From the NCBI RefSeq assembly GCF_044324785.1, contig NZ_CP172127.1: a DNA stretch of 64,000 nucleotides, one strand, 5' to 3'. Below, piece by piece: positions 8,780 to 9,072 of this stretch; within the stretch, counting starts at the first letter, position 1; each line of letters starts with the position of its first letter. Source of the stretch: Escherichia coli (GTDB taxonomy: Bacteria; Pseudomonadota; Gammaproteobacteria; Enterobacterales; Enterobacteriaceae). The translations under genes were made by a program, and so were the position numbers. The notes under the pieces are model-generated. The model saw only the letters and a program-made list of their open reading frames with translations. It made no database searches and had not been told where the DNA came from.

Positions 8780-9072
8780 ATTTTCCAATATGCGGCGTAA
8801 ATCGTGCCCGCCTCGCGGCAGGATCGTTTACACTTAGCGAGTTCTGGAAAGTCCTGTGGATAAATCGGGAAAATCTGTGAGAAACAGAAGATCTCTTGCG
8901 CAGTTTAGGCTATGATCCGCGGTCCCGATCGTTTTGCAGGATCTTGATCGGGCATATAACCGCAGACAGCGGTTCGTGCGTCACCCTCATGCAGGGTCTT
9001 TTCGACGTACGTCAACAATCATGAATGTTTCAGCCTTAGTCATTATCGACTTTTGTTCGAGTGGAGTCCGCC
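8780..9072 (+). promoter_or_regulatory. dnaA promoter region (divergent from rpmH) with DnaA box TGTGGATAA at 8855-8863 and a GATC cluster at about 8900-8960
   Basis: Exact 9-mer DnaA box upstream of dnaA; several GATC sites in a short span, as known for the autoregulated dnaA P1/P2 region. Confidence 0.7.

Follow-up and report, generated by a model that had tools for sequence, protein, structure and literature searches.

The dnaA promoter region and 5' leader in a 64-kb stretch of an Escherichia coli chromosome, with a conserved pair of hairpins in the leader

The transcription of dnaA in E. coli K-12 is based on two promoters, dnaAp1 and dnaAp2, with a consensus DnaA box in between (K-12 reviews and recent papers; PMC8203912, PMC5835720). 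Additional DnaA-ATP-dependent sites at the dnaA promoter include AGATCT (PMC8203912), and Box1 and Box2 take part in activation as well as in repression (bioRxiv 10.1101/2023.03.30.533363); DnaA both activates and represses p2, and its regulation of this promoter is more than repression. Both the -35 and the -10 elements of p2 contain GATC, and a CCGCGG discriminator precedes the +1 (PMC5835720), while three closely spaced GATC sites are found downstream of the p2 start (bioRxiv 10.1101/2023.03.30.533363). According to the K-12 literature, ppGpp inhibits p2 via the discriminator, and Dam methylation stimulates p2. The sequestration of the dnaA promoter by SeqA and Dam is established: the cluster, described as “9 GATC sites within 225 bp”, is the classical sequestered one (PMC5835720), and the binding of SeqA to the hemimethylated cluster after the passage of the fork shuts the promoters for around a fifth of a generation (K-12 literature).

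Other systems resemble this one in part. The mioC promoter and oriC of E. coli share with the dnaA region a consensus DnaA box accompanied by weaker boxes, repression by DnaA-ATP, a high density of GATC, and sequestration by SeqA; however, the dnaA region has neither an unwinding element nor an R1–R4 array, has no sequence similarity to them, and drives the synthesis of an mRNA rather than replication. With the double DnaA-box promoters of nrdA, purH, and polA, it shares the in vivo presence of DnaA at a consensus box that is separated by 3 bp from a second one, although the ChIP enrichment is 5-fold at dnaA as compared to 14-fold at nrdA and 123–124-fold at polA and purH (PMC11317965); moreover, at dnaA the conserved flank is on the opposite side of box 1 from the partner box, CTTTCCAGA. 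Post-initiation control via a long leader is also represented by the 5' UTR of dnaA in Caulobacter and by the antisense RNA over the dnaA 5' UTR in B. subtilis, but these leaders have no relation, in sequence or in structure, to the Enterobacterales hairpins described below, for which the role is putative.

The window analysed here is a stretch of 64,000 nucleotides of an E. coli chromosome, which BLAST showed to be collinear, in reversed orientation, with K-12 MG1655 from 3,890,225 down to 3,840,555; the identity is about 97.6%, and a few strain-specific insertions interrupt the collinearity. The gene order agrees with that of K-12, with yidC-yidD-rnpA-rpmH-ysdD on the minus strand and dnaA-dnaN-recF on the plus strand. 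The rpmH coding sequence for ribosomal protein L34 (8326–8466, minus strand) was recognised from its ORF translation of 46 aa and carries this annotation both in K-12 and in strain N3; the dnaA coding sequence (9073–10476, plus strand), of 467 aa from the annotated GTG, was recognised from its ORF and its match to K-12. The segment of interest, 8780–9072, has no feature under it in the RefSeq annotation, and its right edge directly abuts the dnaA GTG at 9073. This start codon (9073–9075) and the Shine-Dalgarno GGAG (9063–9066), both on the plus strand, belong to a sequence, GTTCGAGTGGAGTCCGCCGTG, that is invariant in the genome-derived relatives.

A sequence-only reading of the window had described this segment as an ordinary conserved dnaA promoter region lying between the divergent starts of rpmH and dnaA, and had proposed an alignment to the K-12 promoter as a check. 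This alignment gave 292 identical bases out of 293, the sole mismatch being at 8990 in the dnaA leader (T in the window, A in K-12), and the segment is present at at least 95% identity in 5423 of 5426 complete E. coli genomes, the copy in strain N3 being 100% identical, which bears out the description. An apparent occurrence at two places per genome in this search came from assemblies whose record starts at dnaA and not from duplications. Over the 801 bases from 8400 to 9200, six positions differ from K-12; three of the differences beyond that at 8990 are located at 8640–8668, outside the segment. The divergence is also real, with rpmH on the minus strand and dnaA on the plus strand, but the nearest divergent gene is ysdD, which had gone unnoticed. 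This gene for a small protein of 26 aa, MTIDKNWLNRSNKDPGRSLRFTHQPV (8696–8776, minus strand), is situated between rpmH and dnaA, 4 nt to the left of 8780; K-12 has b4757 at the equivalent position, and the ORF in the window is identical to it.

The segment, immediately upstream of dnaA and divergent from rpmH, is almost certainly the regulatory region of the dnaA-dnaN-recF operon of E. coli together with the 5' leader, with control by DnaA and by Dam and SeqA as in K-12. The results obtained directly for the window are its identity with K-12, the non-random clustering of GATC, and the conservation of the box, of its spacing, of the p2 elements, and of two helices in the leader; the mechanistic steps worked out in K-12 transfer to this locus because the two sequences are identical at all but one position.

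For the comparative analysis, the relatives were the dnaA loci from 80 gammaproteobacterial genomes together with ten contigs encoding an identical L34 protein, and metagenomes were scanned with a 20-nt pattern covering the ribosome-binding site and the start, GTTCGANTGGAGTCCGCCGTG, which depends on neither the box nor the GATC sites. This resulted in 79 distinct Enterobacterales-like dnaA upstream regions, the last 360 nt of which are 69–100% identical to the window. The metagenome relatives were picked by the 20-nt pattern and carry no taxonomic label; they are mutually related, so that their counts below are not counts of independent events. Each of the 79 regions has exactly one TGTGGATAA, always in the same orientation, and 6–12 GATC sites in the 400 bp upstream. 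The box is found 56–58 nt upstream of the -10 element TATGATCC in 67 of the 69 unique leaders, and the length of the leader, taken as the distance between the -10 element and the GTG, ranges from 106 to 343 nt. Further afield, the free-living Enterobacterales, most Vibrio, both Shewanella, and both Pseudoalteromonas have 6–12 GATC per 400 bp, compared to the 1.2–3.0 expected from the locus average, whereas the Pseudomonas, Halomonas, and Xanthomonas relatives have 0–3 in the 400 bp upstream of dnaA. The Pseudomonas and Halomonas relatives have several DnaA boxes upstream of dnaA, and the Xanthomonas group has none. In Candidatus Pantoea edessiphila and in an Orbaceae, which are reduced or host-associated, neither the box nor an excess of GATC was found upstream of dnaA. 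As far as is known, Dam and SeqA are confined to the clades of Enterobacterales, Vibrio, Shewanella, and Pseudoalteromonas, and the clade pattern of the GATC excess fits this distribution.

The consensus DnaA box, box 1, is located at 8855–8863 on the minus strand (TTATCCACA, which is TGTGGATAA on the plus strand), exactly where the sequence-only reading had put it, and is the only exact consensus copy in the 64 kb; it sits between the conserved TACACT (8829–8834) and TATGAT (8911–8916) and hence, on the promoter assignments given below, between the predicted p1 and p2. A weak box, CTTTCCAGA (8843–8851, minus strand), is its partner in the “double DnaA box” of the ChIP-seq paper (PMC11317965, Table 1); it has three mismatches and is poorly conserved beyond E. 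coli and Salmonella-like sequences. In the same table, the region bound by DnaA in K-12 is centred at 3883968 and contains the double box tTTATCCACAggaCTTTCCAGAa; these correspond in the window to 8834, which is 21 nt from the box, and to 8843–8863, respectively. Published K-12 ChIP-seq data thus place DnaA at the equivalent of 8834, which answers the check by ChIP or footprinting that had been suggested, and for the control of the dnaA promoters by DnaA, which the sequence-only reading had expected, there is evidence from ChIP-seq, footprints, and reporter mutants on the near-identical sequence of K-12.

Downstream of box 1, a block that is near-invariant in the alignments (8864–8894, plus strand) covers a box-like TGTGAGAAA (8876–8884) and AGATCT (8889–8894). 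AGATCT is present in 56 of the 79 upstream regions, with another GATC in 20 more, and CTGTG(N)AGAA is present in 53 of them. By transfer from K-12, DnaA would bind to the consensus box between the promoters, and DnaA-ATP would then spread onto the flanking weaker sites, including AGATCT; at low levels of DnaA, p2 would be stimulated, and at high levels, RNA polymerase would be occluded and both promoters would be repressed.

The p2 promoter has its -10 element, TATGAT, at 8911–8916, where it overlaps the GATC at 8914, followed by the discriminator CCGCGG at 8917–8922 (8911–8922 in all, plus strand); both are recognised from conservation and from the literature. The sequence would place the -35 region around AGATCT at 8889–8894 and the start of p2 near 8923. 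TATGATC is found in 77 of the 79 upstream regions, a GATC in the p2 -35 region in 76, and a GC-rich discriminator, the target of control by ppGpp, in 72. As regards p1, a putative -10 element, TACACT (8829–8834, plus strand), lies upstream of the box and would imply a start near 8841; we infer both positions from this place upstream of the box, and TTACACT is found in 58 of the 79 upstream regions. A consensus promoter scan of 8400–9150 called neither p1 nor p2, its single match being a sigma-70 promoter-like site directed towards rpmH (TTGACT-17-TACAAT, 8569–8597, minus strand), a candidate by its match to the consensus. This result is treated here as a limit of consensus scanning when applied to non-consensus, regulated promoters and not as counter-evidence; the positions given for p1 and p2 are those predicted from the description in the literature and from conservation.

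Nine GATC sites, the target of Dam and of sequestration by SeqA, occupy 8724–8949 (at 8724, 8734, 8745, 8822, 8890, 8914, 8927, 8940, and 8946). The sequence-only reading had noted multiple GATC sites in 8780–9072, and six are indeed present there (8822, 8890, 8914, 8927, 8940, and 8946); that range, however, leaves out three sites of the classical cluster, those at 8724, 8734, and 8745, which are just to the left of 8780 and bring the total to nine in 226 bp. The site at 8890 is in the p2 -35 region and that at 8914 in the -10 element, with those at 8927, 8940, and 8946 coming after the start, as in the published cluster. The nine-site cluster matches the K-12 sequestration cluster (PMC5835720), and the control of these promoters by SeqA, as the sequence-only reading had expected, is known for K-12 from sequestration studies. 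The passage of the fork shortly after initiation would leave the nine Dam sites in 8724–8949 hemimethylated, and the binding of SeqA to these hemimethylated sites would keep both dnaA promoters silent for part of the cell cycle. Overall, the locus is that of the K-12 dnaAp1/dnaAp2 region: the box, the nine GATC sites, and the -35, -10, and discriminator elements of p2 are all shared with K-12, and within 8780–9072 only the leader polymorphism at 8990 is different.

About half of the segment is transcribed leader. The 5' untranslated leader of dnaA from p2 is about 150 nt long (8923–9072, plus strand) and includes the GATC sites at 8927, 8940, and 8946; its structure had been missed by the sequence-only reading. 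Two adjacent hairpins on the plus strand are conspicuous in it when the relatives are aligned. HP1 (8958–8974), in which AACCGC and GCGGUU enclose the loop AGACA, is given by covariation, by RNAalifold, and by the local fold. HP2 (8975–9011), given by covariation and by RNAalifold, has CGUGCGUC/GACGUACG as its outer stem (8975–8982 with 9004–9011) and ACCCU/AGGGU as its inner stem, with CUUUUC forming an internal loop; the polymorphism at 8990 (T or A) falls in the loop of the inner HP2 hairpin.

Covariation was analysed on a MAFFT alignment of the 69 unique leaders. In the leader helices, 91.6% of the cells are paired, compared to 25–50% when the partners are slid. Changes on both sides affect 14 of the 19 pairs as against 9.3 ± 1.5 in shuffles, and there are 76 double-change cells as against 22 ± 4, a number reached by none of 500 shuffles, although the sequences are related and the shuffle counts overstate their independence. 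In HP1, 96.8% of the cells are paired, and four of the six pairs have changes on both sides; in HP2, the seven contiguous pairs of the outer stem are 98.1% paired, and five of the seven covary. The eight outer pairs of HP2 contain 85 G.U cells and no A.C cell, and pairing on the opposite strand would fall from 97% to 81%. This presence of G.U without A.C points to the sense RNA as the molecule in which the outer stem is kept and not to a DNA palindrome or an antisense RNA. RNAalifold independently recovered both helices, including the HP1 core, and the local 60-nt segment folds at -24.2 kcal/mol (z = -3.83; 61% of the ensemble).

A covariance model, R1, was built from 45 compact sequences. It has one hit in the window, at 8956–9014 with 70.3 bits, and also hits 12 held-out Enterobacterales-like loci with insertions in the inner hairpin, at 38–65 bits; against the dnaA loci of Vibrio, Shewanella, Pseudoalteromonas, Pseudomonas, and Xanthomonas, it gave no hit below E = 0.2. 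A search of Rfam 15 over 8300–9300 gave no family at the gathering score and two sub-threshold chance matches. Two other candidate structures were rejected. A hairpin at the 5' end of the leader (8924–8952) folds in most relatives but aligns poorly and, being made of self-complementary GATC, is likely to be a by-product of the GATC cluster; a long-range pairing proposed by RNAalifold between GAUCC at the p2 -10 element and the Shine-Dalgarno sequence has only invariant columns and zero covariation. The leader also contains short ORFs starting at ATG 9021 and at ATG 9025, both without a ribosome-binding site.

An RNA 3' end has been recorded within this structure. The Term-seq data for K-12 contain a 3' end at 3883796 on the minus strand, 67 nt upstream of the dnaA start (PMC7815308, supplementary file 3), with a mean of 121,638 reads (LB, OD 0.4), classified as not Rho-dependent and given an intrinsic-terminator score of 5.03; the main text of that paper is silent on it (PMC7815308). 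In the window, this end maps to 9006, inside HP2 and 9 nt after the inner stem, which is of 5 bp (three of them G-C) and is followed by CUUUUC. An intrinsic terminator or attenuator would be expected to have a GC-rich hairpin with a U run directly behind it and a 3' end 7–9 nt past the stem.

Other explanations of the region have to be set against these observations. The idea that the box and the GATC sites arose by chance or from base composition in an unremarkable intergenic region, with no regulatory role, is close to untenable. A single exact box in 64 kb is unsurprising (0.42 expected; at least one in 33 of 100 shuffles), and taken alone it is within chance, its position being the conserved property; GATC is mildly over-represented across the whole window, with 284 observed and 246 expected. 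However, 8724–8949 is the densest 226-bp stretch of GATC in the window, at around ten times a background of one per 225 bp on average; the Poisson probability of at least nine sites is about 1e-6 for a single 226-bp stretch, and the maximum in 200 first-order Markov simulations was seven. The presence and orientation of the box in all of the 79 upstream regions and its nearly constant spacing to the -10 element, despite divergence down to 69% identity, already refute a chance origin, to which the ChIP-seq and footprint literature on the K-12 counterpart is also opposed (PMC11317965, PMC8203912). It is very improbable, too, that the region is oriC or another locus handling DnaA, such as datA or DARS, instead of a promoter. 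A consensus DnaA box and a raised GATC density are features common to oriC, but a BLAST comparison of K-12 oriC and its flanks with the window gave only chance matches of 12–17 nt (E = 5.5), and no 13-mer unwinding repeat (GATCTNTTNTTTT) was found. In 8622–9042, only one box is within two mismatches of the consensus, so that there is no R1–R4 array; the location is not that between mnmG and mioC, the flanking genes being different, and the region directly abuts the dnaA start. By K-12 synteny, oriC is around 35 kb past the left end of the window, which agrees with the earlier statement that the window contains the dnaA cluster and not oriC.

Two further explanations concern parts of the region, and for these the evidence is more divided. 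The coding sequence of ysdD holds three of the nine GATC sites, and it might be supposed that the stretch 8724–8748 and its flanks are kept for the core of the YsdD peptide (RS..DP..SLRF) and not for control by SeqA or of the promoters. YsdD has been reported as a small protein and detected as a tagged protein (VanOrsdel et al. 2018, PMC6001520), Pfam PF23700 is called on its relatives, the ORF with the motif RSxxDPxxSL[RH]F is present in 41 of the 79 relatives, and the left GATC sites fall on the codons that specify R-S, D-P, and R-S. Against this, the codons GAT, TCC, TTG, and TTT show zero synonymous variation across the 41 homologues, and a DNA motif under the core codons, AAAGCGCAAGGATC (8714–8727), does not vary across five genera and is found in 60 of the 79 upstream regions, which is more than keep the peptide motif. 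The lack of synonymous variation and the persistence of the motif beyond the peptide point to a constraint on the nucleotides themselves, and the left three GATC sites belong to the classical sequestered cluster; an origin in the peptide alone is therefore distinctly unlikely. It is a more serious, if still rather doubtful, proposition that the leader hairpins are by-products of neighbouring constraints and that the 3' end at 9006 is a decay intermediate. The fold of the whole leader is ordinary, being no more stable than its shuffles (z = -0.61); the hairpin at 8924–8952 is built of GATC; the U run after the inner stem is intact as CUUUUC in only about 8 of the 69 relatives; and a terminator scan made no call at HP2, where the published score is 5.03. 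A by-product, however, is hard to reconcile with HP1 and an HP2 outer stem that stay 97–98% paired through compensatory changes, with the restriction of the outer stem to the sense strand, with the independent recovery of the hairpins by RNAalifold and the stability of the local fold, or with the scores of the held-out sequences.

The two hairpins would act on the RNA, we infer, by partial premature formation of a 3' end at 9006, by control of stability or translation, or by both. It is possible, though no more than tentatively proposed, that the two-hairpin element of the Enterobacterales dnaA leader (8958–9011), specific to the sense strand, is an unrecognised post-initiation control point for the synthesis of DnaA. 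One route would be partial premature termination or processing at -67, which would yield a short 5' leader RNA of around 84 nt from p2; in an alternative route, the element would set the stability of the mRNA or the access of ribosomes to it. In the open-access literature, no description of the structure of the E. coli dnaA leader was found, the work on dnaA leaders being confined to Caulobacter, Bacillus, Staphylococcus, and Sinorhizobium; the main review on dnaA describes the GUG start, the poor GGAG ribosome-binding site, and the very short half-life of the mRNA, and leaves the structure of the leader unmentioned. The conserved structure is accordingly a modest, testable lead, of which a prior description may exist in the subscription literature.

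The dnaA promoter is among the best-studied bacterial regulatory regions, and its presence in an E. coli window changes nothing in what is already known; it is useful as an anchor that sets the position and orientation of the window relative to K-12, with oriC outside. The comparative data quantify how rigid the region is: in sequences down to 69% identity, box 1 is kept, as are its distance from the p2 -10 element and the GATC sites of both the -35 and the -10 element. If the proposal for the leader is true, a layer of control at the level of RNA would be added on top of the control of the promoters by DnaA and SeqA. The output of dnaA is about one protein per very short-lived transcript (PMC5835720), and a conserved leader element with an abundant internal RNA 3' end could contribute to this one-protein-per-transcript behaviour.

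The 5' leader of dnaA contains two adjoining hairpins (8958-9011) in which strong covariation, specific to the sense strand, was found across 69 Enterobacterales-like sequences. A 3' end mapped in K-12 by Term-seq, published but undiscussed (PMC7815308, supplementary file 3), falls at position 9006, which is 67 nt 5' of the dnaA start codon. The hairpin pair goes unmentioned in the main dnaA review, and a search of Rfam returned no family match for it. In Salmonella-like relatives (L088, L090, and L092), the leader carries an insertion of about 56 nt directly 5' of the first hairpin (columns 136-196 of A3, our alignment of relatives' dnaA upstream regions); this insertion adds two GATC sites and shifts the consensus DnaA box, box 1, to -274, and DnaA itself is 466 aa long in these relatives.

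Further upstream, the small gene ysdD (8696-8776, minus strand), located between rpmH and dnaA, holds three of the nine GATC sites of the Dam-site cluster. In 41 homologues, the conserved core codons of ysdD are free of synonymous variation. The DNA motif AAAGCGCAAGGATC, which lies at 8714-8727, was found in 60 of the 79 distinct Enterobacterales-like dnaA upstream regions; taken together, these two observations suggest that an element acting at the level of the DNA underlies this small ORF. Immediately 3' of the ysdD stop codon, on the same strand, is a terminator-like hairpin followed by a T-run (CCGGCGCGCCATGCTGG TTTTCACTGG; 8671-8687), which is upstream of the promoter-like site of rpmH (8569-8597).

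Elsewhere in the window, insertions relative to K-12 were found. One of 2.6 kb (1984-4609), flanked by mnmE and the region upstream of tnaC, contains a 728-aa ORF (2275-4461, plus strand) in which Pfam recognises the N-terminal domain of the ShET2 enterotoxin (PF07906, E = 2.9e-50). Another, of 3.4 kb (42503-45865), separates ilvN from uhpA and contains two plus-strand ORFs (42753-44054 and 44269-45765), for neither of which did Pfam give a match. A short insertion (54898-55739) between yicN and nepI encodes a 119-aa RelE-family toxin (55245-55604, minus strand; PF06296, E = 8.8e-42). Past nepI, the right end of the window (57017-64000) has no counterpart in K-12 between 3,822,000 and 3,895,000 and includes ORFs without a Pfam match, one of which is 792 aa long (61588-63966, minus strand). 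In K-12, this direction leads towards selC, a classical site of island insertion.

A second GATC cluster, which ranks second in density in the window, is located within the dnaA coding sequence (9726-10404), where 15 sites occur in 679 bp and 8 of them in a single 226-bp stretch; the binding of SeqA inside the dnaA gene itself has been noted in the literature. Published DnaA ChIP-seq data (PMC11317965) include a weakly bound region without a recognisable box motif at K-12 position 3882238, within dnaN, which corresponds to about 10564 in the window (dnaN, 10481-11581). Over the whole window, 20 DnaA boxes were counted when up to one mismatch was tolerated, versus 12.4 expected; a count as high as 20 arose in 3 of 100 shuffles. 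This mild excess may be related to the high density of DnaA boxes reported near the origin.
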